Source: Streptosporangiales bacterium (GTDB taxonomy: Bacteria > Actinomycetota > Actinomycetes > Streptosporangiales > WHST01). Taken from it: a stretch of DNA of 64,000 bases. Under the pieces are notes generated by a model. It made no database searches and had not been told where the DNA came from. It saw only the letters and a list, made by a program, of their open reading frames with translations. Made by a program: the position numbers and the translations under genes. The DNA lies in assembly GCA_050698355.1 (NCBI GenBank), contig JBOHBN010000209.1, positions 663 to 64,662 on the forward strand, written 5' to 3'. Below are positions 6,836 to 24,761 of the stretch, piece by piece. Positions within the stretch are counted from its first letter, which is position 1, and every line of letters starts with the position of its first letter.

Positions 6836-6879
6836 GTGGTGGGCGTACCCGGACGAGTGGCGACGCGAGGAGGAGCACG

Positions 6880-8250
6880 GTGCATCCGGACCTGAACGAA
6901 GAGCGCGAACGCATGGTCAAGCAGGCCGAGGAGGACGGAATCGAGTTCTTCCTCGCCATGTTCGTGGACATGCACGGCAAGCCGTGCGCGAAGATGGTCC
7001 CCGCGCAGAGCGTGGAGGCCCTGCTCACCGACGGGGCCGGGTTCGCCGGGTTCGCCGCAGGCGCGTTGGGCCAGGACCCGTCCGACCCGGACCTGATGGC
7101 GATCCCGGACCCCTCCTCCTACACCAGGTTGCCGTGGCGTCCACAGGTGGCGGTGCTGCACTGCGATCCGCACGTCGAAGGCAAGCCCTGGCCGTACGCC
7201 CCGCGGGTGATCCTGCGCCGGCAGATGGACCGGCTGCGCGATGAGCGCGGCTGGTCGTTCAAGACGGGCATCGAGGCCGAGTACATGCTCGTACGGCGTA
7301 CCGGCGACGGTGGTATCGAGCTTGCCGACGAGCTCGACTACTCCGAGAAGCCCTGCTACGAGGTCAAGGGCCTGAGCCGGATGTGGGACCACCTCTCCGC
7401 GGTGTCGTCACACCTGAACGAGCTCGGTTGGTCGAACTACGCGAACGACCACGAGGACGGCAACGGCCAGTTCGAGCAGAACTTCGAGTACGCCGACGCG
7501 CTCACCACCGCCGACCGGGCGATCTTCTTCCGGTACATGGTGCACATGCTGGCGCACGAGGCCGGCATGGCGGCCACGTTCATGCCGAAGCCGTTCAGCC
7601 GGTTCACCGGCAACGGCTTGCACCTGCACGTCAGCCTGTGGGACGGCTCCGACTCCGCGCTGTTCGAGACCTCCTCCGACGCGCGGGGGCTCGGCCTCTC
7701 CGAGCTCGCGTACCAGTTCATGGGCGGCCTCATCGAACACGGCCGGGCGATCGCGGGCGTGATCTGCCCGACGGTGAACTCCTACAAGCGCATCGGCGTC
7801 GGCGCGCCGAACTCGGGATCGACCTGGGCGCCCGCGTACAACGCCTACGGCGGCAACAACCGTACGGTCATGCTGCGGGTGCCCGAAGGAGGACGGATCG
7901 AGCACCGCGGCGTGGACGGTTCGGCGAACCCGTACCTCGCCTCCACCGCGCTGCTCGCCGCGGGCATGGACGGCGTCGCCAGGAACCTCAGCCCGGGCGA
8001 GCCTGTGCACGACAACCTGTACGCCTGCTCGCTGGCCGAGACCGAGGCACGGGGCATCAGCAGGCTGCCGGCCATCCTGCCCGAGGCGATGGACGAGCTG
8101 ACCCGCGACGACGTCTTGCGCGCGGCGCTGGGCCAGGTCCGCGGCGGCGACTACGTCGACTACTTCGCCGAGGTGAAGCGCGCCGAGTTCGTCGACTACC
8201 ACAGTCGCGTCAGCGACTGGGAGATCAACAAGTACCTCACCATGTTCTGA
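6880..8250 (+). CDS. gmaS: Glutamine-synthetase-family enzyme, gamma-glutamylmethylamide synthetase type
   Basis: In-frame GTG at 6880 preceded by GAGGAGGAG. The 5' 330 codons of the 785-aa track ORF are shadow. GS-like motifs are present: GIEFFLAMFVDMHGK, FKTGIEAEYMLV, NGLHLHVSLW, NSYKRI, RVPEGGRIEHRGVDGSANPYL. Confidence 0.8.
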   Translation: MHPDLNEERERMVKQAEEDGIEFFLAMFVDMHGKPCAKMVPAQSVEALLTDGAGFAGFAAGALGQDPSDPDLMAIPDPSSYTRLPWRPQVAVLHCDPHVEGKPWPYAPRVILRRQMDRLRDERGWSFKTGIEAEYMLVRRTGDGGIELADELDYSEKPCYEVKGLSRMWDHLSAVSSHLNELGWSNYANDHEDGNGQFEQNFEYADALTTADRAIFFRYMVHMLAHEAGMAATFMPKPFSRFTGNGLHLHVSLWDGSDSALFETSSDARGLGLSELAYQFMGGLIEHGRAIAGVICPTVNSYKRIGVGAPNSGSTWAPAYNAYGGNNRTVMLRVPEGGRIEHRGVDGSANPYLASTALLAAGMDGVARNLSPGEPVHDNLYACSLAETEARGISRLPAILPEAMDELTRDDVLRAALGQVRGGDYVDYFAEVKRAEFVDYHSRVSDWEINKYLTMF

Positions 8251-8315
8251 CCTGTTCGCGCACGCCATCGCGTTGTGCGGCGCTGGCACTAAGGGGGCCG
8301 CAGGGAGGTAAGCGC

Positions 8316-9848
8316 ATGTCTGAAACTGGCCCTGGATCGACGGGGACCTCGGACGTCTCGTTCGGCAACGGCGAGAGCCTGGACAAGGGCACCAACTGGT
8401 GGGGTGCGTTCGTCATCGGCCTCGCCGGGACGATCCTCGTCACCGGCTCCGCGCCGGTCTTCGTGACGACGTTCGGTGCGTCCTACGTCCCCATCATCGT
8501 CTTCTTCACCCTGACCGGTTGGGTGCTGTGCCTGCTGCTCGCGGAGCTGTCCGGCATGATGCCCGACCGCACCGGCGGGTCGCCGACGTACGCGGCGCCC
8601 GCGTACCGCAAGTGGCCGCGGCTCGCCGGCCACGTCAACGGCGTGACCTCGTGGATGTACTGGCTCGGGTGGACGCCGGTGGCGCCGCTGAACATGATCC
8701 TCGCGTCGTTCTACATCGGCGAGCTGTTCGGCCTGGACATGACCAAGGGGTTCACGCCGATCAGTACGTTCGTGTCCTGGTGGACGATCGGCATTGCCCT
8801 CGTCGGGATCGCGCTGCTGGCCTCGGCGGCGTACATGGGCATCAAGTTCGGCACCGGTGTCGCGACCGTGCTGGCGATCCTGGCGATGCTGCCGCTCACT
8901 TTCCTGTCCATCGGCTGGGTCATCAGGCCGTCGGCGGCCGACTGGAGCGAGCTGATCGGTTTCCACCAGCTGGACGGGTCGTCCTTCGTGAGCCCGCTCA
9001 TGGGGCATCCGGCGTGGCTGGTCTACCTGGCGTTCGCGTTCCCGTTGACATGGACCGTGATCGCGATGGAGGCTGCGGCGTGCTACATCGGCGAGTGCCG
9101 GAAACCGGACCGGGACGCGAAGGTCGCGATGACGCTGGAAGGCGGCTACGGCGTCTTCGTCTACACGCTGCTGCCGATCTCGTTCATCGTCGTGCTCGGC
9201 GCGTCCGCGCTCACCGACCCTGATCTGGTCGACCCGAAGACCATCTTTGTGACGTTCGCGAGCCGCATCTTCCCCGGCGTGGCCGGCCACATCCTGGAGT
9301 GGGCGATCGCCCTCATGCTGATCGTCGCGCTCGCGCTGTCGGCGTTGAACGCGTTGATGGGGTGTTCACGCGCGCTGTACCAGATCTCGAGCGACGGCGA
9401 CCTGCCGCGGTGGTGGCAGCACAAGAACAAGCACGGCATCCCCGATCACGCGATGTTCACCAACGTCGGCCTGTCCGTTCTCGGCATCTTCATGGGCGGC
9501 GCCGCGGAGATCTACGCGTTCTCCAACGTCGGTTACCTGGGCTCGTTCGTGCCCGTCCTGGTGGGGTTCTACCTGCTGCGCAAGTACTACCCGGACGCGC
9601 GGCGACCGTTCAAGCTGCCGGAGTTCTCCAAGTACATCGCGCTGGGGATGGCGGTGCTGTACTTCGTCATCTGGTTGTTCGGCGGCATCATCTACTCGTT
9701 CATCGGCGGCAACGCCATCTACTACTTCCTCGGCTGGGTGATCGCCCTGTTGTACCTGCCGCTGTACTGGTACCGCACCCGGGTAGAGGACAAGAAGCAC
9801 GGGGCGGCCCTGGTTGCGACCGGGTCGCCGGGTGGGGAGGACCGATGA
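8316..9848 (+). CDS. APC-superfamily amino-acid/amine permease
   Basis: ATG at 8316 follows AGGGAGG. It is a polytopic hydrophobic protein of about 510 aa (WWGAFVIGLAGTILV.., 12 TM-like segments). The upstream part of the 821-aa track ORF is shadow of gmaS. Confidence 0.85.
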   Translation: MSETGPGSTGTSDVSFGNGESLDKGTNWWGAFVIGLAGTILVTGSAPVFVTTFGASYVPIIVFFTLTGWVLCLLLAELSGMMPDRTGGSPTYAAPAYRKWPRLAGHVNGVTSWMYWLGWTPVAPLNMILASFYIGELFGLDMTKGFTPISTFVSWWTIGIALVGIALLASAAYMGIKFGTGVATVLAILAMLPLTFLSIGWVIRPSAADWSELIGFHQLDGSSFVSPLMGHPAWLVYLAFAFPLTWTVIAMEAAACYIGECRKPDRDAKVAMTLEGGYGVFVYTLLPISFIVVLGASALTDPDLVDPKTIFVTFASRIFPGVAGHILEWAIALMLIVALALSALNALMGCSRALYQISSDGDLPRWWQHKNKHGIPDHAMFTNVGLSVLGIFMGGAAEIYAFSNVGYLGSFVPVLVGFYLLRKYYPDARRPFKLPEFSKYIALGMAVLYFVIWLFGGIIYSFIGGNAIYYFLGWVIALLYLPLYWYRTRVEDKKHGAALVATGSPGGEDR

Positions 9849-11064: not shown

Positions 11065-11095
11065 GAGCTCGGTGCACTCGCCTCAGCGCGCTCGG
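11065..11095. repeat. Right copy of the 31-bp direct repeat
   Basis: Identical to 10466-10496. It contains the last codons (..RAR) and stop of the AraC-family gene. Confidence 0.95.
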
Positions 11096-11865
11096 CCGGT
11101 GCGTCCCGGATCGTGCGGCGTCGAGAGGGCCGCGAGCGCGACGAGTACGGGCGGCTCCGTCGGATCGTGCGCGCGCAGCCGAACATCGCGGTGCAGGCAT
11201 TCGCCGCCGGTGCGCACCCGGCACGGTTCGAGCGCGGCGCCAACCAGCGTGCGGGCGTCTGGGAGCAGCCGCCAGAGCGCGTCGGTGCCGGCGGGGAAAC
11301 CAGCAGCGAGCAGCCGGTAGCTGCCGATGGGCATGCCCGTGATTTCGAACGGGCCCGGCCCCGGGAGGTACGCGCCCGCGACCGGACGCGCCTGCGCGAT
11401 CGCCTGTGGGAACAGCCCCACGTAGACCCCATCGCAGCCGGGGTCCTCGATCCGGCCGCGTACGACCGCACCCGGCGCTGGGCCGGGCACTGCGACACGG
11501 GCCGCGGGCTTGTCACCGGCGCTGTCCGGCAACCGCTGGAAGCCGACCGGGTTGACGCCGACCAGCTTGCTGAACCGGGACGAGAACGTGCCGAGGCTGT
11601 TGAACCCGACCTCGAAGCAGACGTCGGTCACCGACAGGTCGGTGCGAAGCAGCAGCTGTTTCGCGCGCTCGAAACGCAACGCCCGGCGGAACTCACCTGG
11701 GGGTACGCCGACGGTCGAGCGGAACAGCCGGGCCAGGTGGAACGGGCTGTAACCGACGGCGTCGCCCAGGTCCGTCAGCGTGAGCCGGGCATGGAGACCT
11801 GTCCGCAGTACCTCGACCGACCGGGCGATCACGCCCGGATGCTCGTCGGCGAGTGTGTCCGTCAT
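11083..11865 (-). CDS. AraC-family transcriptional regulator (N-terminal HTH, C-terminal effector domain)
   Basis: 260 aa with the double HTH LTLTDLGDAVGYSPFHLARLFRSTVGVPPGEFRRALRFERAKQLLLRTDLSVTDVCFEVGFNSLGTFSSRFSKLVG. Confidence 0.85.
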   Translation of the reverse strand: MTDTLADEHPGVIARSVEVLRTGLHARLTLTDLGDAVGYSPFHLARLFRSTVGVPPGEFRRALRFERAKQLLLRTDLSVTDVCFEVGFNSLGTFSSRFSKLVGVNPVGFQRLPDSAGDKPAARVAVPGPAPGAVVRGRIEDPGCDGVYVGLFPQAIAQARPVAGAYLPGPGPFEITGMPIGSYRLLAAGFPAGTDALWRLLPDARTLVGAALEPCRVRTGGECLHRDVRLRAHDPTEPPVLVALAALSTPHDPGRTGRAR

Positions 11866-11907: not shown

Positions 11908-13278
11908 CTAGCCGGGCGAGGGCGCGGCCTCCTGCTTCTTGATGTCCGGCACCTCGGTGCCCCTGAGGGAGGCGCGCGCCGTCTCGGGTGCGCGCCACAC
12001 CGCGATGATGCCGACTACGCAGGCGCCCATCATGTAGTAAGCGGGCCACAGGGTGATGCCGTGCTCCGCAACGACGTACTTGTCGATGAGCGGCACCGTC
12101 CCACCGAACGCCGCTGTGGATATGTTGTACGCGAGCGCGAAGCCCGCGTACCTGACGTGGGTGGGAAAGAGCGCCGGGAAGGTCGCGGAGATGGTGCTCA
12201 GCTGCAACACGAGCAGCAGGCCCAGAACGAGGAAGCCGACCACGGCCCACCCGATGTTGATCCGCATCACAAGGAACGCCGGTATGGACAGTACGAGAAA
12301 GCCGACTCCGGAGATGTACCAGAGCGGTTTTCGGCCTATGTGGTCGGACCATCTCCCAGCGAGATTGATCACGCACATCATGCCCGCGTACACGCAGGCG
12401 GTGATGAGTAGCGCCGTGCTCGAGCTCAGGTGGATTGTGTCTCCGAGGTATGTCGGCATGTAGGTGAGCAGCGTGTAGTCGGTGACGTTCAGCATGATCA
12501 CCATGCCGCCGCAGACCAGCAACGGTCGCCACTGCCGGAAGATGTCCGCCCATTGGGTGGCGGTGCTGGTTTCCTTCTGCCCCGACTCCTCCAGCTCGCG
12601 GAACACCGGGGTGTCTTCGAGCTTTAGTCGCATGTAAAGACCGACGGCGCCGAGTGGGGCGGCGACCAGGAACGGGATGCGCCAACCCCATGCCTGCATC
12701 GCGTCCGGGCCGATGAGGAACGAGACGACCGTAGTGATGACGATGGCCAAGAGATAGCCGGACAGGGTGCCGAACTCCAGGAAGCTGCCGAGGAAGCCGC
12801 GGCGCCTGTTCGGCGCGTACTCGGCCATGAAGGTTGCAGCTCCCCCGTACTCGCCGCCCGTGGAGAAGCCCTGGACCATCCGGAGGAACACCAAGATGAT
12901 CGGCGCGGCGACACCGATGGTGTCGTAGCCGGGCACTACACCGAGCAGGAAGGTGCAGCTCGCCATCAGGATGATGGTGAGGGCGAGGATCTTCTGCCGG
13001 CCGAGCCGGTCGCCGAGTGGCCCGAAGACGATGCCGCCGAACGGCCGTACGGCGAAGGAGACGGCGAACACGCCGAACGCCGACAGGGTTTGCAGCGTCG
13101 GGTCGTCACCTGGAAAGAAGTTTGCGCCGATGGCCGACGCCACGTAGGCATACGAGCCGTAGTCGTACCACTCGGTGGCGTTCCCCATCGCCGAGCCGGC
13201 GATGGCCCGGCGAAGGGTGCTCTTGTCGGGCGCCGCGATGTCGTCGTCGCCCCGGGGTGCCGCGTACTCGTCTGCCAT
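11908..13278 (-). CDS. MFS transporter, metabolite:H+ symporter (ProP/KgtP-like) family
   Basis: Start chosen at ATG 13278 (MADEYAAP..), preceded by GGAGGC. MHS-type motifs include GNATEWYDYGSYAY, GPLGDRLGRQK and VQGFSTGGEYGGAATFMAEYAP. Confidence 0.85.
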   Translation of the reverse strand: MADEYAAPRGDDDIAAPDKSTLRRAIAGSAMGNATEWYDYGSYAYVASAIGANFFPGDDPTLQTLSAFGVFAVSFAVRPFGGIVFGPLGDRLGRQKILALTIILMASCTFLLGVVPGYDTIGVAAPIILVFLRMVQGFSTGGEYGGAATFMAEYAPNRRRGFLGSFLEFGTLSGYLLAIVITTVVSFLIGPDAMQAWGWRIPFLVAAPLGAVGLYMRLKLEDTPVFRELEESGQKETSTATQWADIFRQWRPLLVCGGMVIMLNVTDYTLLTYMPTYLGDTIHLSSSTALLITACVYAGMMCVINLAGRWSDHIGRKPLWYISGVGFLVLSIPAFLVMRINIGWAVVGFLVLGLLLVLQLSTISATFPALFPTHVRYAGFALAYNISTAAFGGTVPLIDKYVVAEHGITLWPAYYMMGACVVGIIAVWRAPETARASLRGTEVPDIKKQEAAPSPG

Positions 13279-13309: not shown

Positions 13310-14566
13310 TCAGCCGTTGACCGCCAGGCCGACCGCCTTGGCCCAGATCTCGAGGGCCGCGTCGATCTGCTCGGCTCCCACGACAAGTGCGGGAATCATG
13401 CGTACGACGTTTCCGTGCGCACCGCAAGTTAGCAGCAACAGCCCGTTGTCCGCAGCGGCGCGCTGGGCCCGTTCCGCCGTGTCGGTGTCGGGGTTGCCGG
13501 CCTCGTCGGTGAACTCGTTGCCGAGCATCAGGCCCAGCCCGCGCACGTCGCCGATGACGGAGTGCTCCGCGGCTACGCTACGTAGCCCGTCGGCGAGGCG
13601 CTTGCCCATTCGGCCTGCGTTCTCGACCAGGCCCTCGTCCCTGATCACGTCGAGCGTGGCGCTCGCCGCCACGCACGCAACCGGGTTCGCTCCGTAGGTG
13701 CCGCCCTGCGAGCCGGGCCACGCCTTGGCCATCAGGGCTTCCGGAGCGGCGAGCGCGGAGAGTGGGAAACCGCTCGCGAGGCCCTTGGCGGTGACGAGCA
13801 CGTCGGCGCGGGTGCCGAAGTGGTCGTGCCCCCAGAACCGTCCGGTACGGCCGAAGCCGGTCTGCACCTCGTCCATGACGAGCAAGATGCCGAGCCTGTC
13901 GGCGCGCTCGCGCAGGCCGGCGAGGAAGCGCTCGTTGGCCGGTACGTACCCGCCCTCGCCGAGCTGCGGTTCGACGAAGAACGCCGCGGTGTCGGACGCG
14001 GGTGCGGTCGTCGCGAGCACGTAGTCCAACTCCCGCAACGCGAAGTCGGTGGCCGTGTCCTCATCCCAGCCGTACCTGTAGGCGTACGGGAAGGGCGAGA
14101 CCGCGACACCGGACGGCATCGGGCCGATGCCGGCGCGGAACTTGGTGCCGGAGGTGGTGAGCGCGGCGGCGCCGTACGTCCGGCCGTGGAAGGAGCCGTG
14201 GAACACCACGATGTTCTCCTTGCCGGTGGCCTGGCGTACGAGGCGCATCGCGGCCTCGATCGCCTCGCTGCCGGAGTTGACGAAGAACAGCGAGTCGATC
14301 CCGGGCGGCAGGACCTGGCCCAGCTTCTCGGTCAGGTCGCGCAGCGGCTTGCTGAGCACGGTCGTGTACTGGCCGTGGATCAGCGTCGCCACCTGCTCCT
14401 GCGCGGCGGCGACGACCGTCGGGTGGCAGTGCCCGGTGGAGGTGACGCCGATGCCCGCGGTGAAGTCGAGGTACTGGCGCCCGTCGTCGTCGTAGAGATA
14501 GACACCCTCCCCGCGGGACGCACGCACGGGCGTGGCTTGCTTGAGGTGCGGGGATAGCTGGGCCAT
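13310..14566 (-). CDS. gabT: Class-III PLP aminotransferase, 4-aminobutyrate aminotransferase type
   Basis: Start at ATG 14566 (MAQLSPHLKQ), preceded by GAGGAG. Motifs are GIGVTSTGHCHP, FFVNSGSEAIEAA, LVMDEVQTGFGRTG and TAKGLASG. It is divergent from gabD. Confidence 0.8.
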   Translation of the reverse strand: MAQLSPHLKQATPVRASRGEGVYLYDDDGRQYLDFTAGIGVTSTGHCHPTVVAAAQEQVATLIHGQYTTVLSKPLRDLTEKLGQVLPPGIDSLFFVNSGSEAIEAAMRLVRQATGKENIVVFHGSFHGRTYGAAALTTSGTKFRAGIGPMPSGVAVSPFPYAYRYGWDEDTATDFALRELDYVLATTAPASDTAAFFVEPQLGEGGYVPANERFLAGLRERADRLGILLVMDEVQTGFGRTGRFWGHDHFGTRADVLVTAKGLASGFPLSALAAPEALMAKAWPGSQGGTYGANPVACVAASATLDVIRDEGLVENAGRMGKRLADGLRSVAAEHSVIGDVRGLGLMLGNEFTDEAGNPDTDTAERAQRAAADNGLLLLTCGAHGNVVRMIPALVVGAEQIDAALEIWAKAVGLAVNG

Positions 14567-14581
14567 GGGTAACTCCTCGTA

Positions 14582-14597
14582 GGATTGTTGACAATCC
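14582..14597. promoter_or_regulatory. Palindromic operator-like 16-mer GGATTGTTGACAATCC in the gabT/gabD intergenic region
   Basis: 7-bp arms GGATTGT/ACAATCC with a 2-nt centre. The same core ATTGTTGACAATCC recurs at 23304-23317 and 24722-24735. Confidence 0.55.
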
Positions 14598-14691
14598 GCC
14601 ACGATACAGGCTGTGCTGCCGCCGGCAACAGTGACTCGCGGCGCTCGATACGCTGCGAAGTACGGCAACGTGAGCGAAGGAGTGGTGCGAG

Positions 14692-16161
14692 ATGTCGACC
14701 CTTGAACAGGAGACCTCGGTCGTCAAGGCGGTACCGAAGGACCTGTACATCGGGGGCTCGTGGCGCCCCGCGGAGGGTGGCGCGACGTTCGACGTCGAGG
14801 ACCCGGCGACCGGCAAGACGCTCTGTGCGGTCGCCGACGCGTCTCCCGCGGACGGCATGGCGGCAATGGATGCGGCCGTGGCCGCGCAGGGGGAGTGGGC
14901 GCAGTACCCGGCACGCGAGCGCGGCGAGATCCTGCGCCGTGGCTACGAGGCGTTGATGGACAGGCAGGACGAGCTCGGCCTGCTCATGACGCTGGAGATG
15001 GGCAAGCCGCTCGCGGAGGCGAAGGGCGAGATCGCGTACGCCGCGGAGTTCTTCCGCTGGTTCGCCGAGGAGGCGGTTCGCATCGACGGCGGCTACGCTC
15101 CGTCCGCGAACGGCCAGGACCGGGTCATCGTGATGCGTCAGCCCGTCGGCCCGACCATCCTCATCACGCCGTGGAACTTCCCGATGGCGATGGGCACGCG
15201 CAAGGTCGGCCCGGCGATCGCCGCCGGCTGCACCGTGGTGCTGAAGCCCGCCGACCTGACCCCGCTCTCGGCGCTCGCGATGACCGAGATGCTCGAGCAG
15301 GCCGGGCTGCCGGCCGGCGTGGTCAACGTGGTGACCACCAAGGACGCCGGCGGGGTGATGGAGCCGCTGATCCGCAGTGGCAAGGCGCGCAAGCTGTCGT
15401 TCACCGGCTCGACCGCGGTCGGCAAGAAGCTGCTGGAGCAGGCGTCGGAGAAGGTGCTGCGCACCTCGATGGAGCTGGGCGGCAACGCGCCGTTCCTCGT
15501 CTTCGACGACGCCGACCTCGACGCCGCCGTCGACGGCGCGATGCTCGCCAAGATGCGCAACGTCGGGGAGGCGTGCACGGCGGCCAACCGGTTCTACGTG
15601 CACGAGTCCGTCGCCGACGACTTCGCCCGCCGGCTCGCCGGGCGGATGTCGGCGTCCGTGGTCGGTCGCGGTACCGACGATGGCGTCACGGTGGGCCCGC
15701 TCGTCGAGGGGCGCGCGGTGGAGAAGGTCCAGGGCCTCCTCTCGGACGCTGTGGACAAGGGCGCGCGCGTCGTGACCGGAGGCGAGCCGACGAACGGCAC
15801 CGGGCACTTCTTCACCCCGACCGTGCTCACCGACATCCCCGAGTCGGCGCAGATGCGGCGAACCGAGATCTTCGGTCCGGTCGCCGCGATCTCCACGTTC
15901 ACGTCCGAGGACGAGGTGATCGCGGAGGCGAACGACACCGAGTACGGGCTGGTGTCGTACGTCTACACCCGTGACCTCGCCCGGGCGCTGCGGGTGTCCG
16001 AGCGGCTGGACTCCGGCATGGTCGGCCTGAACAAGGGCATGGTGTCGAACGCCGCGGCCCCGTTCGGCGGTGTCAAGCAGTCCGGCATCGGCCGCGAGGG
16101 CGGCCGGCTCGGCATCGAGGAGTTCCTCGAGGTCAAGTACGTCGCCGTACCCGCGCCGTAA
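14692..16161 (+). CDS. gabD: NAD(P)+-dependent succinate-semialdehyde dehydrogenase
   Basis: 489 aa of the aldehyde dehydrogenase family with ITPWNFP, FTGSTAVGKKL, ELGGNAP and EEIFGPV-like (TEIFGPV) motifs. GAAGGAG lies before the ATG. Confidence 0.85.
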   Translation: MSTLEQETSVVKAVPKDLYIGGSWRPAEGGATFDVEDPATGKTLCAVADASPADGMAAMDAAVAAQGEWAQYPARERGEILRRGYEALMDRQDELGLLMTLEMGKPLAEAKGEIAYAAEFFRWFAEEAVRIDGGYAPSANGQDRVIVMRQPVGPTILITPWNFPMAMGTRKVGPAIAAGCTVVLKPADLTPLSALAMTEMLEQAGLPAGVVNVVTTKDAGGVMEPLIRSGKARKLSFTGSTAVGKKLLEQASEKVLRTSMELGGNAPFLVFDDADLDAAVDGAMLAKMRNVGEACTAANRFYVHESVADDFARRLAGRMSASVVGRGTDDGVTVGPLVEGRAVEKVQGLLSDAVDKGARVVTGGEPTNGTGHFFTPTVLTDIPESAQMRRTEIFGPVAAISTFTSEDEVIAEANDTEYGLVSYVYTRDLARALRVSERLDSGMVGLNKGMVSNAAAPFGGVKQSGIGREGGRLGIEEFLEVKYVAVPAP

Positions 16162-16184: not shown

Positions 16185-16240
16185 GGGCCGCAAAGTGCCC
16201 TTGGTGCCCCTATGAAGGCATCATGGGCACCTTGCGGCCC
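16185..16240. terminator. Bidirectional hairpin between convergent gabD and the gvp cluster
   Basis: GGGCCGCAAAGTGCCC (16185-16200) pairs with GGGCACCTTGCGGCCC (16225-16240). These are 16-nt arms with one mismatch. Confidence 0.55.
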
Positions 16241-16274: not shown

Positions 16275-16490
16275 CTAGGAGAGTGACTGGACGCGCTTGA
16301 GCATCGGGATGCTCGGGAAGCGATCGTCGCGGATCTTGGTGAGCAGTAGCTCGGCGTAAGCGGGCACCTCGTCGGGCTCGAGCAGCGACTCGATCATGTC
16401 GAGCATGGTGTACGAGGGGTAGATGTCCTCGTCGACCTTGCTGATGAGCATGTCCAGCAGCTGTTCGCGAACGGACTGGTCTTCTGCCAT
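16275..16490 (-). CDS. Small acidic hypothetical protein (71 aa), last gene of the gas-vesicle operon
   Basis: MAEDQSVREQLLDMLISKVDEDIYPSYTMLDMIESLLEPDEVPAYAELLL... It is preceded by a duplicated SD-like GGAAGGACAGGAAGGACAGG. I recognise no family. Confidence 0.5.
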   Translation of the reverse strand: MAEDQSVREQLLDMLISKVDEDIYPSYTMLDMIESLLEPDEVPAYAELLLTKIRDDRFPSIPMLKRVQSLS

Positions 16491-16529
16491 TGCCTGTCCT
16501 TCCTGTCCTTCCTGGCTCCTGCGCCGGCG

Positions 16530-16817
16530 TCACGCCAGCAGGGTTCCGAGCGGGCCGAGATCGATGTTCAGGTCCTCGGGGTTGATGCCGTACCGCTCCT
16601 CCAGCTGTGTCATGGCCTGCTCGAGCCGCATCAGCCCACGCCCGAGGTCCTCGACCTGCTCCTCGGTCAGGTCGCCCTGGTCGACGCGGCGCAGCGCCTG
16701 CCGTTCCATCAGCTGCCGCACCAGCTCCACGATGGTGAGCACCAGCCGCAGCAGGTCGCGCTCGACCGCGTCCGGGTCGGTCTCCAACCGGTGGGGAAGG
16801 GTGCGTACGTCACTCAT
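16530..16817 (-). CDS. gvpK: Gas vesicle protein K
   Basis: 95 aa with RDLLRLVLTIVELVRQLMERQALRRVDQGDLTEEQVEDLGRGLMRLEQAM, a classic GvpK core. Confidence 0.85.
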   Translation of the reverse strand: MSDVRTLPHRLETDPDAVERDLLRLVLTIVELVRQLMERQALRRVDQGDLTEEQVEDLGRGLMRLEQAMTQLEERYGINPEDLNIDLGPLGTLLA

Positions 16818-17005
16818 GTCTCTGCCTCCAGCTCGCTGCGTACGGACATCAGCAGCGCGTGCAGCTTGATCTGGACGAGGTCGACGCCGGACAACGAGAT
16901 GGTGATGTCGCCGGCGAGCACGACCCCCGTGCCCAGCAGCCGGTCGAGCAGGTCGACCAGCGCGACCTGCCGCCTCGGCTGCTCGGTGACGGTGTCAGCT
17001 GTCAT
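16814..17005 (-). CDS. gvpS: Gas vesicle protein S (small GvpA/J-family member)
   Basis: Internal ATG at 17005 of the 192-aa track ORF gives a 63-aa product MTADTVTEQPRRQVALVDLLDRLLGTGVVLAGDITISLSGVDLVQIKLHALLMSV. It overlaps both neighbours by 4 nt. Confidence 0.8.
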   Translation of the reverse strand: MTADTVTEQPRRQVALVDLLDRLLGTGVVLAGDITISLSGVDLVQIKLHALLMSVRSELEAET

Positions 17006-17763
17006 GCGTTCTCCAGCTCCGCGAACGAGTAGGGGGGCCACGGCCCGGTCAGCTCGAACCGTACGCTCGGCAGCCGCGACTCCAACCGGCTGACGGCTGC
17101 CTCGAGGTCCCCGGTTCGGTCCCGTTCCACCAGGTACGCACCGTTGAGGATCATCCGGCCCGCGTAACCGCCGAGCCGCTGGTCCTGCGCCGGATGGCGC
17201 CGGCTCGCCACGCCGACCGCGGCCAGCTCGGCGTGGATCTCCTCGCCCGTCGCGGCGGCCGCCCGCTCGTGCTCCTCGCGCTGCGTGGTCTCGGCCCGGC
17301 GCCGCTGCAGGTACGCGGTCCCGGACTCCGTGGCGGAGTCCTCCGGGACGCTGCGCGCGGCGGCGTCGTCCAAGTACGCCTTGATGCCGCACTCGGTGCG
17401 GCCGTCCAGCCGGGCGAGGGTGCTCTCGATGCTGTCGCGCCGCTCGTCCAGCGTGCGGCGCACCCCGTCGTCGTCCAGATAGACAGTGGCGAGGCGCAGC
17501 GGCGCGACCGAACCGCTCGCCGCCAGCGCCCCCACGACCTGGTTGTGTGCACGCGCGACCCGTTCGAGCCAGCCGAGATCCTCCAGGTTCGCGCGCAGCG
17601 CCTCCTCGCCGAACTCATCCAGGCTCACCGTGCTGACCGCCGCGGCGAGGCCGTCCTGGTCGAGGGTTCGCACCGGCGCGTCCGAAACCCCGCGTACGTC
17701 CTCGAGGGAAGCGGCGGCCTCGCCGCGCGTGATCGCGTAGAGGTAGGTGCCGGTCTCAGCCAT
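17002..17763 (-). CDS. gvpL: Gas vesicle protein L (GvpF/L family)
   Basis: YLYAITRG...VRTLDQDGLAAAVSTVSLDEFGEEAL..NLEDLGWLERVARAHNQVV matches the GvpL/F family. Start is ATG 17763, or GTG 17772 as an alternative. Confidence 0.8.
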   Translation of the reverse strand: MAETGTYLYAITRGEAAASLEDVRGVSDAPVRTLDQDGLAAAVSTVSLDEFGEEALRANLEDLGWLERVARAHNQVVGALAASGSVAPLRLATVYLDDDGVRRTLDERRDSIESTLARLDGRTECGIKAYLDDAAARSVPEDSATESGTAYLQRRRAETTQREEHERAAAATGEEIHAELAAVGVASRRHPAQDQRLGGYAGRMILNGAYLVERDRTGDLEAAVSRLESRLPSVRFELTGPWPPYSFAELENA

Positions 17764-18124
17764 CGCGGTCACCCCCTTCGTCTGTACCGGGTTCCAGCGC
17801 CGACACGCGCTGGCGCAGGCGCTCGTTCTCCTCCTCCAGCTCGCGGTTACGCGCGGCAGAGCTCAGCGAGGGGTCGTCTTTCCACCAGTCGATCCCCATC
17901 TCGGCCGCCTTGTCGACCGACGCGACCAGCAGGCGGATCTTCACTGTCAGCAGCTCGATGTCGAGCAGGTTGACCTTGATGTCGCCCGCGACGACGATGC
18001 CCTTGTCGAGGACACGTTCCAGCACGTCGGCGAGGTTCGCCGGCTGGGGAGCCGGCGTCGTCGACGCCCTGCTGGCCGGGGCCTGGTAGCCGTCGCGGCC
18101 ACGAGCGAGCTGGTCCACGGTCAC
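17756..18124 (-). CDS. gvpJ: Gas vesicle protein J
   Basis: 122 aa with NLADVLERVLDKGIVVAGDIKVNLLDIELLTVKIRLLVASVDKAAEMGIDWW (GvpA/J fold). Confidence 0.85.
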   Translation of the reverse strand: MTVDQLARGRDGYQAPASRASTTPAPQPANLADVLERVLDKGIVVAGDIKVNLLDIELLTVKIRLLVASVDKAAEMGIDWWKDDPSLSSAARNRELEEENERLRQRVSALEPGTDEGGDRDG

Positions 18125-18441
18125 TCCTCGTGTAGTTGGGCGCGGGTGTACCGCCTGAGCCGCCGGTACGAGAGCAGGTCACCGTTCTCGTCCAGGTCGG
18201 CCTGGTAGACGGCCATGACATCGGCGGTCTCCGGAACCCGGTGGATCTCCAGGACCTCCACCTCCAGCTGCCAGCCGTCGTCCGTACGCGACAGCGCCGT
18301 GACCGCCTCCGCGTTACGCTGCGTCAGCTCGGCCAGCTGCTGTGCGCCCGTCCGCGCCACGGCGGCGGCTCCCCGCTTGCGGCCCGCGGTTCGCGACTGC
18401 GTGCGCCCTTGCTTGTTGGTGTTCTCGTCGGCGGTCGTCAT
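18121..18441 (-). CDS. gvpO: Gas vesicle protein O
   Basis: 106 aa with AQQLAELTQRNAEAVTALSRTDDGWQLEVEVLEIHRVPETADVMAVYQADLDENGDLLSYRRLRRY, a typical GvpO. Confidence 0.8.
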   Translation of the reverse strand: MTTADENTNKQGRTQSRTAGRKRGAAAVARTGAQQLAELTQRNAEAVTALSRTDDGWQLEVEVLEIHRVPETADVMAVYQADLDENGDLLSYRRLRRYTRAQLHEE

Positions 18442-18463
18442 TGGCTCCCTCCGTCCGCCGGCC

Positions 18464-18688
18464 TCATGCCCGCAGCAAGCGGGCCATCAGCTGGTTCTCC
18501 AGCTCGTCGGCCTCTTCGTCGCTGAGCACGCCCGCCGCGCGGGCCTCGTCGACCTCCTCCAGCTGGCGTCGGATCGTCGCCGGGTCGTAGTACTCGGCCT
18601 CTGCCTGCTCGCGTACCCGCTCCGCGATCCACGCGGTCGCGCGTACCGGTGCAAGCGGCAACGTCAGCAGTCCGGTGAACAAGCCCAT
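18464..18688 (-). CDS. gvpG: Gas vesicle protein G
   Basis: 74 aa MGLFTGLLTLPLAPVRATAWIAERVREQAEAEYYDPATIRRQLEEVDEA..., a GvpG signature. Confidence 0.85.
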   Translation of the reverse strand: MGLFTGLLTLPLAPVRATAWIAERVREQAEAEYYDPATIRRQLEEVDEARAAGVLSDEEADELENQLMARLLRA

Positions 18689-18689
18689 G

Positions 18690-19442
18690 TCAGTCGCCCG
18701 GTACGAAGTCGTACGGTGCCTGTGGACCGATCAGGCGCAGCCTCATCCGTGCCGACTCTCGCTTGCCGAGGCTCTCCACCGCTTCCTCCAGGCCCGTGTG
18801 CCCGGTGCGGTCCACGAGCAAGGCGGCGTCCAGCACGTCCTCTGGCGTCCCCGGCTCGCGGCTCTCGACGGCGCGGATGTGAGGATCAAGCGCGTCGAGC
18901 ATCGCCGCCGCGTCGGCCGCGGCCTTGCGGCCCAGCACTCCGACGACGAGTTCGCCCAAGCGGACGCTCTGCCCGTACACCGGCTGTTCTCGCGTGGCGG
19001 TGCTGAGGTGCTCGATCTCCGGGTCCTCTGCGACGATCTCGCGCAGCAACGGCTCCTCGAGGTAGCGAGCCCGCAGCGTGTACTGCACCGCTCCCGCGAG
19101 CTCGGCGAGCAGCTCGGCATACCGGTCGAGCGCGGGCCCCAAGCCCGCCTCGAGGGTGCCCTCGTCCGCGACGGTGCCGAACCGCAGCGGCAGAACATCG
19201 CTTCGCGCCGCGACCGCGTCGAGCACCCGGCTGTGCGCGAGCAGGTCGTCGCGGGTCGTGATGTCCCGGCCGGCCTCGATCGGGCTGGCGAGCAGCGCCA
19301 GGTCAGCGGCATCCAGCAGCACGAGGTCGCGCGCGCCGCCGACACCCACCAGATCGCCCGGAAGGTCACCGCGTGCGGCCATGACGCCGTACAGGTAGTA
19401 CGCGGTCGCCTGGCTCGCCTGGCTCGCCTGCGCCGCGGTCAT
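18690..19442 (-). CDS. gvpF: Gas vesicle protein F (GvpF/L family)
   Basis: 250 aa with [49 protein letters not shown] overlap with gvpA. Confidence 0.8.
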
Positions 19443-19894
19443 CGCTCGCTCGAGGATCTACGGCGCGTCTGTTGTTGGCGCGGCTTCTCTGTTTGCTGGG
19501 ACCGTCGCCTGGGCTGGCGCTCGGATTCGCTCTCGTCCTTGTCCTCGTCGGAATCGCCGGTCAGCGTTTCCTTGATGCCCGACAGCGCGCCGGCGGTCTT
19601 GCCCTTCGCGCCGCCCTCGGTCATGCTCTCCATCATCTCGGGCAGGTCCTTGCCGCCCTGCTGCGTGAGGTCCAGCCTGCTCGTCGCCTCCGCGAAGCGC
19701 AGGTAGGTGTCGACGCTCGCGATGACGATGCGGGCGTCGATGGTGAGCAGCTCGATGCCCACCAGCGAGACGCGGACGTAGGCGTCGATCACCATGCCCT
19801 TGTCGAGGATGGTGTCGATGACGTCGGCGAGTGAGCTCGCCTGCGGGCGGTCGACGTACCCGCCTCTGGAACGCTGCGTCGTTGCGACAGTCAT
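19439..19894 (-). CDS. gvpA: Major gas vesicle structural protein GvpA with a long charged C-terminal extension
   Basis: 151 aa. The core [51 protein letters not shown] is near-canonical GvpA. About 75 further residues are rich in D/E/K/R/Q/S. Confidence 0.9.
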
Positions 19895-19897
19895 GGG

Positions 19898-21019
19898 TCA
19901 CCTGCTCCTTCCAGACGTCGCCGGGCGGCGAGTCCTGCGATTGCGGGGTGCTTCCTCGGCCGGTTCTTCCGGCGCTTCCTCTTCCTCGTCCTCCGGCGCT
20001 TCCTCTTCCTCGTCCTCCGGCTGTTCCTCGTCCTCGTCCTCCGGCTGTTCCTCGTCCTCGGCTGCCGGCTCCTCCTCGGGCGACTCCTCGTCGTCCTCGT
20101 CCTGTGGCTCATCTTCAGACCCGGGCGGCTCCTGATCGTCTCGGCCCTCGCCGCTCTCGTCCTGGTCTTCCTCTTCCTCGGCCAGCGCGTCCTCGTGGCT
20201 CTTGACGACCTCGCTGTCACGGATCTCGCCGCGCCAGCCCTCGACGTCGTCGGGGTCGAGGATCGTCTGGGTCATCACGTGCCGGCGGAAGTGCTTGAGC
20301 TCGAGCCGGGCACGGCGCCCCTGCGCGCGCCACAGGTTCCCCGTCTTCTCGAAGAAGCCCTGCGGGTGGTACTCGAGCACCACCAGGATCCGGGTCAGGC
20401 GCGGGCCGAGCTCGTGGAAGGTGACGGTTCCGTCGACGTGGCCCTTCTGTCCCGATGAGCGCCACACGATGCGGTCGTCGGGAACCTGCTCGGTGATGGT
20501 CGACTCCCAGGATCGGTGCGACCAGAAGACCTGAGCCTTCAGGTTGACCTTCCCGTCCTCCTCCTGCTCGGCGTGCTCCACCTTCTTCATGAAGCTGGTC
20601 CAGTCCTGGTACTGCGTCCACTGGTTGTACGCGACCCGCACCGGTACGCCGACGTCGATGTCCTCGACGATGTTGGTGACCTTCACGTCACCACCTCCTC
20701 CGCCGCTCGAGCCGCCGCCCAGCGCTTCCTTCACCTTGTCCCCGACGCCGGAGAAGACCCCCTTGAGCGCACCCTTCGCCGGGGACCCACCCTGAGCGCC
20801 TTCCTGTGCCCCCCGTATCGCGGCCATCAGGCCCGGGCCGCCCTTGTCGTTCGCGTACTCGGTGAGCCGCTCGGTGAGACCCTGTGCCTGATCTACCAGG
20901 GAGTTGGCGCCCCGCTCCGCGAATGCGAGTGCCACGTTCTTCAGCTCGTCCTTCAGCCGGTCGGTGGGAAGGTCGCGGGCAAGCTCGCCCAGGCCGGGTG
21001 TGCTCTTCGCGTCAGCCAT
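19898..21019 (-). CDS. SRPBCC (cyclase/dehydrase-like) domain protein with helical/Gly-rich N-terminus and a poly-acidic, then basic, C-terminal tail
   Basis: Start at ATG 21019 (MADAKSTPGL). The central part VKVTNIVEDIDVGVPVRVAYNQWTQYQDWTSFMKKVEH...IVWRSSGQKGHVDGTVTFHELGPRLTRILVVLEY looks SRPBCC-like. The tail is EEEDQDESGEGRDDQEPP..EDEEEEAPEDEEEEAPEE..RNRRTRRP. It lies directly upstream of gvpA. Confidence 0.65.
   Translation of the reverse strand: MADAKSTPGLGELARDLPTDRLKDELKNVALAFAERGANSLVDQAQGLTERLTEYANDKGGPGLMAAIRGAQEGAQGGSPAKGALKGVFSGVGDKVKEALGGGSSGGGGGDVKVTNIVEDIDVGVPVRVAYNQWTQYQDWTSFMKKVEHAEQEEDGKVNLKAQVFWSHRSWESTITEQVPDDRIVWRSSGQKGHVDGTVTFHELGPRLTRILVVLEYHPQGFFEKTGNLWRAQGRRARLELKHFRRHVMTQTILDPDDVEGWRGEIRDSEVVKSHEDALAEEEEDQDESGEGRDDQEPPGSEDEPQDEDDEESPEEEPAAEDEEQPEDEDEEQPEDEEEEAPEDEEEEAPEEPAEEAPRNRRTRRPATSGRSR
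19971..20060. repeat. Tandem 24-bp repeats (about 3.75 units) inside the acidic-tail coding region
   Basis: GGCGCTTCCTCTTCCTCGTCCTCC occurs twice (19971-20018). GGCTGTTCCTCGTCCTCGTCCTCC follows about 1.75 times (20019-20060). Together they encode the EEEAPEDE/EDEEQPED repeats. Confidence 0.9.
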
Positions 21020-21566
21020 TGGACTTGCTCCCTCGCTGCCGCGACGAGCTCTTGGTCGACCTGCTCGAGCTCGTCGACTTGCGGCGGGAACTCGTCGAAC
21101 CCCCGCGACTGGAGCTGCTGCGCTTGCGCGCCGGCTGCGGTTCGGGTTCGGGCTCGGGCTCTTCCTCGTCGTCGGCCGATTCCTCGTCGTCGTCGGCAGG
21201 TTGCTCATCGGACGGCGGTTCCTCGTCCGCGGGCGGCTCCTCCTCGCCGGTACCCTCCGATCCGGGGGACCGCAACTGCGTCGCGCGCTGCTGGAGCCGA
21301 TCGCTCAGCGCGTCCATGCCCTTGCCGGCAGCCGCTGCCGCGGCCTCGCGGCCCGCGTCGGCGAGGCGGCCGCGTGCGTCACCGCCAATGCGCTGCAGCG
21401 CCGGTGAGGACTCGAGCAGGTTCTTGCCCTGCTCGAGCAGCGCGGTTCTGTCCAGACGCTTGCCGGCGGCAACCGCGCCGAGCATCAAGGCGAGCTTCAT
21501 CTTCTTGGTCCGGCCGAGGGCGTAGCCGATGGCTATGCCGAGCGCGACCGTACCTTGCGATTTCAT
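21012..21566 (-). CDS. Hypothetical protein: N-terminal hydrophobic segment, Ala-rich helical region, poly-acidic stretch, Ser/Arg/Lys-rich tail. First gene of the gvp operon.
   Basis: Start at ATG 21566 (MKSQGTVALGIAIGYALGRTKKMKLALMLGAVAAGK), preceded by GGAGAG. The C-terminus is ..EEEPEPEPEPQPARKRSSSSRGGSTSSRRKSTSSSRSTKSSSRQRGSKSNG. It overlaps the next gene by 8 nt. Confidence 0.55.
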   Translation of the reverse strand: MKSQGTVALGIAIGYALGRTKKMKLALMLGAVAAGKRLDRTALLEQGKNLLESSPALQRIGGDARGRLADAGREAAAAAAGKGMDALSDRLQQRATQLRSPGSEGTGEEEPPADEEPPSDEQPADDDEESADDEEEPEPEPEPQPARKRSSSSRGGSTSSRRKSTSSSRSTKSSSRQRGSKSNG

Positions 21567-21858
21567 CGTCGGCTCTCCAACCTTTGTATGGCATTGGTAC
21601 AGCTGCCCCCCGGTTGGCGAGCGGCACGTCATGGTGACGCCGCCCTTCATCAAAACGCGGGCCTTTGGCTGGCGACCTCCCCAGAGCCGACGCTATGGGC
21701 CTGTCGTTCTCGGTACCCAAGGGCGCACGGGGCAATCACGCTGGTGCCCGCTTTTACCCGATATTGAGAAATGATCACGGTATGTACTCGTTACCGGCTT
21801 CCCACGACCTGCCGACCGTGAGGGGTAGGACCCGTGTACGGGCAGTAGCGCCCGCTCG

Positions 21859-22524
21859 TCAGGCCTGGTGTGGCGCCAAGCGGCCGATCGCGTCGTGCAT
21901 GTGGTCCTCGAGCAGCGCCAACGCGCGGTCGGTGTCCTGCTCCTTGATCGCTTCGACAATGCTCGCGTGCTCGGCGGCGAGGTCCGCGGGCGCGTGGTAC
22001 TTGCTCGGCAGCGCGGCCATGCACATGCGTGTCTCGACGAGCAGCGTACGCGCCATGCGTTCCAGTCGCGCGCTGCCCGACTCGGCGACGAGCACCTCGT
22101 GGAAATCGAGGTCGCTGCGGCTCAGCGCCGCGTGGTCGCGTTTCTTCGCGGCCCGCTCCATCCGGGCGGCGGCCTTGCCGAGGCGGTTCGCCGCACCCGG
22201 GTCCGCCTGCTGGACGATCATCGTCACCGCGGCGCCCTCGACCGCCATCCTGGCGGCGTAGATGTCGTCAATGTCCGCTGGGGTCAACTCCGTTACGAAA
22301 AGGCCGCGGTGCCGGACGCTGCGAAGCAGGCCCTCCTGCACCAGCCGCTGCATCGCCTCGCGCAACGGTCCGCGGCTCACGCCGAAGCGGGCGGCGAGGT
22401 CCGCCTCGCCGAGCTGGTCACCCTGGGCCAGCGCGCCGGACATGATCGCCTCGCGCAGTTGGTCGGCGATGAGGCCCGCGGTCGGTTCGCGGCTGATCGG
22501 CTTGAGCGAGTCGGCTGGCGCCAT
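21859..22524 (-). CDS. GntR/FadR-family transcriptional regulator
   Basis: 221 aa with GDQLGEADLAARFGVSRGPLREAMQRLVQEGLLRSVRHRGLFV (wHTH) plus an FCD-type C-terminus. It starts 3 nt after the stop of the upstream isomerase-like gene. Confidence 0.85.
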   Translation of the reverse strand: MAPADSLKPISREPTAGLIADQLREAIMSGALAQGDQLGEADLAARFGVSRGPLREAMQRLVQEGLLRSVRHRGLFVTELTPADIDDIYAARMAVEGAAVTMIVQQADPGAANRLGKAAARMERAAKKRDHAALSRSDLDFHEVLVAESGSARLERMARTLLVETRMCMAALPSKYHAPADLAAEHASIVEAIKEQDTDRALALLEDHMHDAIGRLAPHQA

Positions 22525-22527
22525 CGC

Positions 22528-23286
22528 CTATGCCCTTGCGCGATCCGGCGACAGGCGGAACAGCGCGCCGAGCCCGGCGGCCCGCTCGTGGTGGCCGGCG
22601 AGCCGCAGCCCCTCCCAGGCGGTGACCTGGTTCGCGGTGAGCACGGGCTTGCCCGCCGCGGCCTCCATCGCGTCGAGCCATGCGACGGTGTGCAGGGCTG
22701 TGTCGGGCAGGAGCACGGCCTCGGCGTCAGCGGCACCGCTCTCGGCGGTCGACGCCGCGAGCTCCAGCACCGCCTCCCGGCCGAGGTCACCGACGTCGGC
22801 GGCCTGCAGGATGTCCTTGCTGGTGAACGACACCACCTCGATGCCGCCGGCCGCGAGGAACTCCACGAACCTGGCGGCGATGCCCTCGGGGTACGTAGCC
22901 GCGACCGCGACCCGGCGCACGCCGAGCGCGTGCGCAGCCTCGACGAACGCGATGGACGTGCTGGACGCGGGTACGTCGGCGGTCGAGGCCAGGGTGTCGG
23001 CCTGGTCACGCGCGCCGTCCCAGCCGAACACGAAGCTGCCGCTCGTACACGCCCACATCACGGCGTCCGGGCGGTGCGGTGCCAGCTGACGCCACCCTGC
23101 GGCCAGCTCGTCCGGCTGACCGACGGCGAGCAGGTTGTCCTCGGTGTGGGCGACGTCGTCCGGCGTGGTGTGCACGAGCGGGAGCGCGACGCTGGAGCCG
23201 AGCAGCCGCTCGACGCCTGCGTAGTCGTCCTCGGCCGCGTAGCCGGGGTAGAGCATGCCGACGGTCGTGTTCTCGGCCACGAACAC
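22528..23286 (-). CDS. Asp/Glu/hydantoin-racemase-superfamily protein (maleate cis-trans isomerase / arylmalonate decarboxylase-like)
   Basis: 252 aa with VGMLYPGY..., MWACTSGSFV (first Cys motif), RRVAVAATYP and GKPVLTANQVTAWEGLRL, typical of the maleate isomerase family. Confidence 0.7.
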   Translation of the reverse strand: MFVAENTTVGMLYPGYAAEDDYAGVERLLGSSVALPLVHTTPDDVAHTEDNLLAVGQPDELAAGWRQLAPHRPDAVMWACTSGSFVFGWDGARDQADTLASTADVPASSTSIAFVEAAHALGVRRVAVAATYPEGIAARFVEFLAAGGIEVVSFTSKDILQAADVGDLGREAVLELAASTAESGAADAEAVLLPDTALHTVAWLDAMEAAAGKPVLTANQVTAWEGLRLAGHHERAAGLGALFRLSPDRARA

Positions 23287-23302: not shown

Positions 23303-23336
23303 GATTGTTGACAATCCTACTGGCCCTTCCTAGCGT
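23303..23336 (+). promoter_or_regulatory. Sigma-70-type promoter (TTGACA-N17-TAGCGT) embedded in an ATTGT-N2-ACAAT operator, upstream of the DUF3830 gene
   Basis: GATTGTTGACAATCCTAC-N9-CTAGCGTCA. The -35 is at 23308-23313 and the -10 at 23331-23336. The 18-mer and the CTAGCGTCA are identical to the copy at 24721-24754. Confidence 0.6.
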
Positions 23337-24754: not shown

Positions 24755-24761
24755 CACGGCG

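Follow-up and report, generated by a model that had tools for sequence, protein, structure and literature searches.

The operator of GntR from Bacillus subtilis is an A/T-rich palindrome overlapping the promoter or the transcription start. Two other regulators of the superfamily are connected with genes for an aminotransferase and a semialdehyde dehydrogenase, namely CsiR from Escherichia coli, the FCD-type GntR repressor of csiD-lhgO-gabDTP, and GabR from B. subtilis, the MocR-type regulator of gabTD. GabR acts as activator and repressor on ATACCA direct repeats, and GntR-family operators in general follow the consensus NyGTNxACNy (PMC4494728). For the FadR subfamily this has been specified as NyGTM-N0-1-KACNy with TKGT/ACMA boxes (PMC4494728, Suvorova et al. 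2015). Sites have been predicted for PhnR from Burkholderia, e.g. GTAGATTGTC-AACAAT and ATTGTTGACAAT, for PrpR from Chromohalobacter (Csal_2422; site ATTGTCGACAAT, recognition helix ISRGPLREAMRRL) and likewise for the Bxe_A4089 group, where they were tabulated by comparative genomics (PMC4494728, S2 file). Aminotransferase and dehydrogenase genes are also found in ectoine and hydroxyectoine clusters, in which Ssd/DoeC and Atf/DoeD convert diaminobutyrate to aspartate at the end of the known ectoine catabolism (PMC5924519).

In the window, by which we mean the whole 64-kb stretch of DNA that was analysed and which originates from a metagenome-assembled genome of the Streptosporangiales, a palindrome is located between divergent genes for an aminotransferase and an aldehyde dehydrogenase, and it is very probably a real binding site of the neighbouring GntR-type repressor. 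This site A is the 16-bp sequence GGATTGTTGACAATCC (14582–14597, not assigned to a strand) with the arms GGATTGT and ACAATCC, the centre TG and a conserved core at 14583–14596. The gene starts (ATG at 14566 on the minus strand for the aminotransferase, ATG at 14692 for the dehydrogenase) give the 125-bp divergent region and the 16 nt to the aminotransferase start that the initial annotation had described, with 16 nt counted from the end of the core and 15 nt from the end of the 16-mer. Within this region site A is off-centre, 23 nt from the aminotransferase start and about 95–102 nt from the dehydrogenase start. Its 14-nt core GATTGTTGACAATC is present in three exact copies at 14583, 23303 and 24721, just as had been claimed for 14.6, 23.3 and 24.7 kb, with a mean of 0.09 matches expected from dinucleotide-preserving shuffles and none of 100 shuffles reaching the observed three. 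Searching the window for ATTGTNNACAAT with up to two mismatches led to extra matches at chance level only. Site A had also been regarded as the better palindrome with 7-bp arms; these arms are indeed there, but the outer G:C pair is not conserved among related sites, in which the flanking position outside the 14-bp core carries only 0.22 bits and conservation drops to background level at once. We therefore take the 14-bp core as the functional unit and rejected the 16-bp palindrome as a special feature. The orientation of the central dinucleotide was rejected as a functional signal as well, as CA, TG and CG all occur and flip between lineages; in the position weight matrix of the related sites the half-sites are invariant across genera and only the centre varies between these three.

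The gene at 13310–14566 (minus strand) encodes a class-III aminotransferase (Pfam PF00202) of the GabT/PuuE-like type with an unvalidated substrate. Its closest solved relatives are GabT and PuuE from E. coli (~285 bits) and its best model is the PRK08117 subfamily (446.3 bits, cut-off 574), while the GabT equivalog models (TIGR00700 and related) give 355.8 bits against a cut-off of 506.65. The SSADH-like aldehyde dehydrogenase (14692–16161, plus strand) is close to its family and still below the cut-offs of TIGR01780 (582.9 bits, cut-off 646.35) and NF008415 (581.9 bits, cut-off 828). Reading the names gabT and gabD as GABA-shunt genes is thus not validated, as both proteins stay below the curated NCBIfam cut-offs. 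A ProP-like MFS metabolite/H+ symporter with its own RBS is encoded at 11908–13278 (minus strand), and its start is only 31 nt past the aminotransferase stop, so both genes probably form one operon. The other genes of the cluster encode the GntR-family regulator of the FadR subfamily with an FCD domain (21859–22524, minus strand), the presumed binder of the operator, and in an operon with it a first EutA/arylmalonate-decarboxylase-like protein (22528–23286, minus strand), followed by a DUF3830 protein (23384–23884, plus strand) whose solved homologue 3KOP is uncharacterised. A second EutA/arylmalonate-decarboxylase-like protein (23943–24686, minus strand), a D-2-hydroxyacid dehydrogenase (24762–25733, plus strand) and an amidase-signature amidase (PRK06169; 25747–27153, plus strand) were identified by profile matches. 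Against the EutA equivalog TIGR02990 the two EutA-like proteins score 98.3 and 110.5 bits, far from the cut-off of 318.

The two other copies of the core are located among these genes, again without strand assignment. Site B (23303–23316) overlaps the -35 box of the DUF3830 promoter (TTGACA at 23308–23313, -10 box TAGCGT at 23331–23336) and at the same time precedes the start of the EutA-like/regulator operon by 16 nt, a position that implies a putative autoregulation of the regulator. Site C (24721–24734) overlaps a TTGACA at 24726–24731, with the -10 box TAGCGT at 24749–24754 and the GTG start codon of the hydroxyacid dehydrogenase 7 nt later. This short distance suggests a leaderless hydroxyacid dehydrogenase transcript (24749–24764). 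At both sites TTGACA is located inside the palindrome and TAGCGT follows after exactly 17 nt. The observation that this -10 block is not shared at 14.6 kb turned out to be right, as CTGTGC is found there in place of TAGCGT.

To these data we added a collection of 80 loci from species-representative genomes (52–66% identity), retrieved with an alignment of 25 regulator orthologues. The loci comprise 1.50 Mb in total and span more than 15 actinobacterial genera, with Amycolatopsis, Nocardiopsis, Actinomadura, Actinoallomurus, Streptomyces, Haloechinothrix, Prauserella, Saccharomonospora, Glycomyces, Marinactinospora, Aeromicrobium and Marmoricola among them. Allowing one mismatch, we found 195 matches to GATTGTNNACAATC where first-order Markov simulations predict 0.55, and 190 of the 195 are located upstream of orthologues of the cluster genes from the window. 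Aminotransferase genes are preceded by 61 of the sites, 53 of these in the divergent region common with the dehydrogenase, and 77 sites are found ahead of the hydroxyacid dehydrogenase in a region common with the second EutA-like gene or DUF3830. In about 47 loci a site is also present ahead of the EutA-like/regulator operon, which points to autoregulation. The initial annotation had proposed that both genes belong to the same regulon and had suggested looking for the motif upstream of gabT orthologues, where its absence would speak against the link. It is present upstream of 62 of the 63 aminotransferase orthologues (23 exact matches, 38 with one mismatch and one with two) and, with at most two mismatches, of 54 of the 57 dehydrogenase orthologues, co-occurrence counts that are biased by the regulator-based choice of the genome loci and support the proposed regulon. 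Counting 8-mers in 36 non-redundant aminotransferase upstream regions with no pattern imposed also led to the motif: the top seven words all belong to it and four of them occur in 29 of the 36 regions. Sequence, position and conservation of the palindrome and its co-occurrence with the regulator are direct observations. In one locus (L004, position 15119) a Glu/Leu/Phe/Val-dehydrogenase-like gene has its own copy of the operator and the aminotransferase is without one; such a gene belongs to the cluster as an extra member in loci of the Propionibacteriales type (L001, L002, L004, L081).

Against the selection bias a second sample of 80 metagenome loci was fetched with the aminotransferase as query. 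Among its near-full-length aminotransferase homologues with at least 60% identity the site is present in 27 of 53, and nine more show a variant with two to three mismatches, eight of them 17–26 nt before the ATG, which is the range of the consensus sites. Examples for such variant operators are GTTGTTAACAGTC and GGTTGTCAACAGTC, each followed by CTACCAAGGAG. They belong to a sub-clade (L083–L086, L089, L099 and L107) carrying GTTGTTAACAGTC, GGTTGTCAACAGTC or TGTTGTCGACACTC, and the regulators found on four contigs of this sub-clade (L083, L084, L086 and L107) are only 44–48% identical and altered in the N-terminal arm and the wing. Operator and regulator may have co-evolved. From the 16 homologues of at least 60% identity without the site, 12 group closely together in a single sub-clade that branches within the motif-bearing clade (12 metagenome loci, L091–L110) with a ~70% identical aminotransferase and a different gene arrangement. 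Operator and divergent layout are lost there and another conserved upstream element, TTGACACAACGTCCG ... GGACAGATCAC, is found, which suggests that a different regulator might have taken over. The consensus site is present in none of the 18 aminotransferase homologues with less than 60% identity; every one of the 12 contigs encoding a regulator of at least 49% identity as well has it. Since the site-less sub-clade is nested and the operator varies with the regulator, the motif is ancestral to the aminotransferase clade and tracks the regulator.

As a mode of regulation this is ordinary, conventional local regulation. We consider it likely that site A is the operator of the FCD-type GntR encoded at 21859–22524 and that this protein acts as a repressor; binding, the sign of the regulation, the inducer and the assignment of the promoters are what we infer from the sequence in the model described here. 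A dimer of the regulator would bind the 14-bp palindrome G-ATTGT-(C/T)(A/G)-ACAAT-C. At site A the palindrome would be located directly after a predicted -10 box (TATCGT, 14601–14606, minus strand, 3 nt upstream of the operator) and before the RBS of the aminotransferase (GAGGAG, 14573–14578, minus strand, 6 nt before the ATG at 14566), so that it would cover the expected transcription start, the classic position for a repressor. A possible -35 box is TTGCCG (14623–14628, minus strand) with a 16-nt spacer, and on the minus strand the order is TTGCCG, 16 nt, TATCGT, ggc, GGATTGTCAACAATCC, tac, GAGGAG, ttaccc and ATG. An E. coli-type consensus promoter scan of 14450–14760 did not result in any promoter, TATCGT being below the threshold, and therefore these boxes, which agree with the promoter consensus at 8 of 12 positions, are only actinobacterial TAnnnT-type matches read by eye. 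In many relatives, the operator is preceded at a distance of 0–7 nt by a hexamer of this type (TATGGT, TAGGGT, TAGCGT, TAGATT or TATCAT). With the regulator bound, transcription of the aminotransferase and MFS transporter operon would be blocked. At sites B and C, where the palindrome lies over the -35 box, the same regulator would repress the DUF3830 gene, the hydroxyacid dehydrogenase/amidase operon, both EutA-like genes and its own gene, until a metabolite of the pathway in the FCD domain presumably frees the repressor.

Through site A the divergent dehydrogenase is probably co-regulated in the window, because one site between divergent operons usually controls both of them (PMC4494728). 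The -10 box on the dehydrogenase side is TACAAT or TAGCAT in relatives and the degenerate TACAGG in the window, so control of the dehydrogenase is less certain here. In Pseudonocardiaceae the operator fills the 17-nt spacer of the promoter facing the dehydrogenase (TTGTCG...TAGCAT). Loci from this family (L005–L079) have a conserved extra half-site, GACAAC or TACAAC, directly beside the aminotransferase/dehydrogenase operator, which doubles as the -35-like TTGTCG of the dehydrogenase promoter with the -10 box TAGCAT and fits the pattern of an additional half-site as described for GntR regulators (PMC4494728).

The position of the sites is also what bears on the sign of the regulation. We regard it as improbable that the local GntR binds the aminotransferase/dehydrogenase pair as an activator or a dual regulator, although some proteins of the FadR subfamily do activate certain promoters, as FadR from E. 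coli does at fabA, and site A is located ~65–80 nt upstream of a candidate dehydrogenase promoter (TACGCT, 14649–14654), a distance typical for activators. On the aminotransferase side, however, the site between -10 box and RBS is in a repressor position, and the same is true for sites B and C overlapping the -35 box and for the Pseudonocardiaceae site within the spacer between TTGTCG and TAGCAT.

The assignment of the repressor to the gene at 21859–22524 is based on its co-localisation with the sites, on the putative autoregulatory site, on the joint variation of operator and regulator and on the published motif class. Both domains score well above their cut-offs, the GntR wHTH (PF00392, residues 19–77) with 67.2 bits against 27 and the FCD domain (PF07729, residues 87–210) with 81.4 bits against 24.3. 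The recognition helix is VSRGPLREAMQRL, and in the alignment of 25 regulator orthologues the metal-ligand-type residues D138, H142, H186 and H208 of the FCD domain are invariant. The best NCBIfam match is phnR_burk (TIGR03338), reaching 143.1 bits with a cut-off of 271.5, and the CsiR equivalog NF008576 gives 57.9 bits with a cut-off of 218. With GATTGT-C/T,G/A-ACAATC the operator fits the FadR-subfamily consensus including its boxes, and the predicted sites of PhnR, PrpR and the Bxe_A4089 group represent the same palindrome. As the motif class is known for homologous regulators, the assignment of the regulator becomes stronger and the novelty lower; our literature search found no paper connecting the motif with a GntR regulator in actinobacteria.

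That the motif class is common to several FadR-subfamily groups means in turn that a paralogue could in principle recognise the site, and further regulators are encoded nearby. The site could then be genuine and be bound by the AraC-type protein encoded at 11083–11865, by the second GntR (3001–3717) or by a global regulator encoded elsewhere, which we think is quite improbable. The set of window genes that was mapped onto the related loci includes one regulator, the FCD-type GntR, which occurs together with the sites in more than 15 genera. Moreover, it is with the most diverged local regulators that variant operators are found, and AraC proteins usually bind direct repeats. The GntR at 3001–3717 is not supported as the binder, as it adjoins a different cluster, of the methylamine/N-methylglutamate type.

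Two further explanations do without a bound protein, and their probability is very low. The three copies might simply reflect a short dispersed repeat or a promoter sequence that they share, namely TTGACA with its flanks, and indeed TTGACA is contained in the palindrome and followed at sites B and C by a well-spaced -10 box. At site A, however, no -10 box follows TTGACA, and some sites are located in 5' leaders, in which a -35 box would serve no purpose. Across genera the symmetric half-sites stay the same and only the centre flips, and the 195 sites of the related loci far exceed the expectation. Least credible of all is a role of the palindrome as a hairpin in the aminotransferase mRNA (5' leader), for which a 6-bp stem with a 4-nt loop is possible (-10.3 kcal/mol for a 40-nt stretch) and which we rejected, since this stability is not significant (z = -1.35, with 21 of 200 shuffles folding at least as well), the sequence is invariant and not covarying, the same element lies upstream of the transcription starts at sites B and C, and an Rfam search of 14300–14900 gave no match.

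Repression by the local FCD-type GntR would thus extend over two groups of genes that are separated in the window. The 5.7-kb gap between the dehydrogenase and the regulator is occupied by a gas-vesicle cluster (16275–21653) with two GvpA/J-type proteins, two GvpF/L, GvpO and a protein with an SRPBCC/polyketide-cyclase domain. In most of the related loci the genes for dehydrogenase and regulator are immediate neighbours, and DUF3830 often comes after the aminotransferase; the only gene annotated between dehydrogenase and regulator in these loci is one DUF4262 ORF (L033). As the dehydrogenase abuts the regulator in relatives, the gap of '9 kb' in the window is best read as an insertion into one cluster. 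The initial annotation had linked GABA-shunt genes to a DUF3830/amidase cluster 9 kb away; the linkage as such stands, but not the idea of a separate unit, as the aminotransferase/dehydrogenase pair is a core part of one ancestral cluster that is split here by the gas-vesicle genes. The latter look like a lineage-specific insertion, and convincing flanking repeats, as expected for a mobile element, were searched for and not found. A 24-nt inverted repeat (16185–16240, 88% complementary, 8-nt loop) is located just past the dehydrogenase stop and is likely a terminator hairpin at the edge of the insertion. Periodic repeats of 24 nt at 19944–20183 and 21148–21231 correspond to an acidic, Glu/Asp-rich low-complexity stretch of the 436-aa SRPBCC-domain protein. 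On the other side, the AraC-family regulator gene (11083–11865) immediately follows the MFS transporter gene in the same orientation. The region 917–9848 contains genes for an FAD oxidoreductase (DAO), an XRE-cupin regulator and the second GntR/FCD regulator (3001–3717), for GATase, GXGXG, glutamate-synthase-like and glutamine-synthetase-like proteins and for an amino-acid permease. This arrangement resembles N-methylglutamate/methylamine utilisation clusters, and it is here that the GntR at 3001–3717 probably has its true target.

The pathway behind the operator has a core gene set without described function, consisting of the genes for the aminotransferase, the SSADH-like dehydrogenase, the DUF3830 protein, the two EutA-like proteins, the hydroxyacid dehydrogenase and the amidase. 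Because both enzymes are below the GabT and GabD cut-offs, a dedicated step from an omega-amine via the aldehyde to the acid is more likely than GABA itself, and the genes annotated as gabT and gabD here would encode dedicated pathway enzymes and not a housekeeping GABA shunt. In some relatives accessory genes are found behind the same operator, encoding an EhuB-type ABC transporter, an M24 hydrolase, an enolase-superfamily enzyme, a Glu/Leu dehydrogenase-like enzyme or a peptide-type ABC transporter. The binding protein of one such locus (L019) is an EhuB equivalog (233.1 bits, cut-off 190.9), in place of which the window has the ProP-like MFS transporter, and DoeA-like M24 hydrolase genes, matched best by models for the ectoine hydrolase DoeA, are restricted to a minority of the related loci, all below the cut-off. 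In L019 (7480 and 9913; also in L038, L138 and L140) the operator lies ahead of genes for the EhuB-type transporter, the DoeA-like M24 protein and the enolase-superfamily protein; these carriers are Nocardioidaceae genomes and some metagenome contigs, and they hint at an ectoine-like substrate. Such a substrate is a reasonable lead.

A more far-reaching and rather doubtful possibility is that the regulon represents an undescribed actinobacterial route for an ectoine-like or another diamino/N-acyl compound of the compatible-solute type. Aminotransferase and dehydrogenase would then take the role of DoeD and DoeC (omega-amine to semialdehyde to acid), the amidase, the DUF3830 protein, the two EutA-like proteins and the D-2-hydroxyacid dehydrogenase would replace EutD, EutE, EutB and EutC, and the FCD-type GntR would replace the MocR-type EnuR. 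If true, this would be the first functional context for DUF3830, which no paper covered by our literature search mentions, and the first defined regulator/operator pair of a Gram-positive ectoine-type catabolism. A survey of ectoine catabolism from 2026 refers to putative clusters in actinobacteria, and searches of its text gave no match to GntR, amidase, Streptomyces, Nocardi or Pseudonocardi. The cluster is not assigned as an ectoine cluster, as the window contains no ectoine hydrolase (no EutD/DoeA homologue was found in it by tblastn) and the EutA scores are far below 318; EutB, EutC and EutE were not seen among the annotated cluster genes. In any case the regulator and its operator represent a well-defined candidate pair that is directly testable, and DUF3830 is placed in a defined predicted regulon. 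The conserved gene set for this substrate-unassigned catabolic pathway is widespread in soil and halophilic actinobacteria, its carriers including Amycolatopsis, Nocardiopsis, Actinomadura, Streptomyces, Haloechinothrix and Nocardioidaceae. With this knowledge, the repressor and the 14-bp operator could serve in a screen for the inducer that leads to the identity of the substrate.

Compared to known systems, the cluster has in common with the ectoine and hydroxyectoine clusters (ehu/ueh-eutABCDE-ssd-atf with EnuR) the combination of an SSADH-like dehydrogenase, a class-III aminotransferase and EutA-like proteins. Its regulator is of the FCD type and not of the MocR type as EnuR, and amidase, DUF3830 and D-2-hydroxyacid dehydrogenase are outside the known ectoine pathway. 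CsiR from E. coli and GabR from B. subtilis likewise combine a GntR-superfamily regulator with an aminotransferase/semialdehyde dehydrogenase pair, and CsiR has even the same domain type as the regulator from the window; the low score of the latter with the CsiR model and those of the enzymes below the GabT and GabD cut-offs set it apart from the GABA systems. With GntR from B. subtilis it shares an A/T-rich palindrome with TKGT/ACMA boxes over the promoter or the transcription start and, as proposed here, a repression relieved by a small-molecule effector, whereas half-site sequence and pathway differ; the spacing from GT to AC is 2 nt in the window and 3 nt in many FadR-type sites. The PhnR, PrpR and Bxe_A4089-group regulators also consist of GntR wHTH and FCD domain with a helix SRGP(L/V)REA, have a predicted 12–14-bp palindrome ATTGT(C/T)(G/A)ACAAT, sometimes with a CTAC flank, and show divergent gene arrangements and autoregulation. 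The regulator from the window is not an orthologue of PhnR (143 bits, cut-off 271.5), its hosts are actinobacteria, and in contrast to these groups the genes under its predicted control encode an aminotransferase, an aldehyde dehydrogenase, a DUF3830 protein, two EutA-like proteins, a hydroxyacid dehydrogenase and an amidase.
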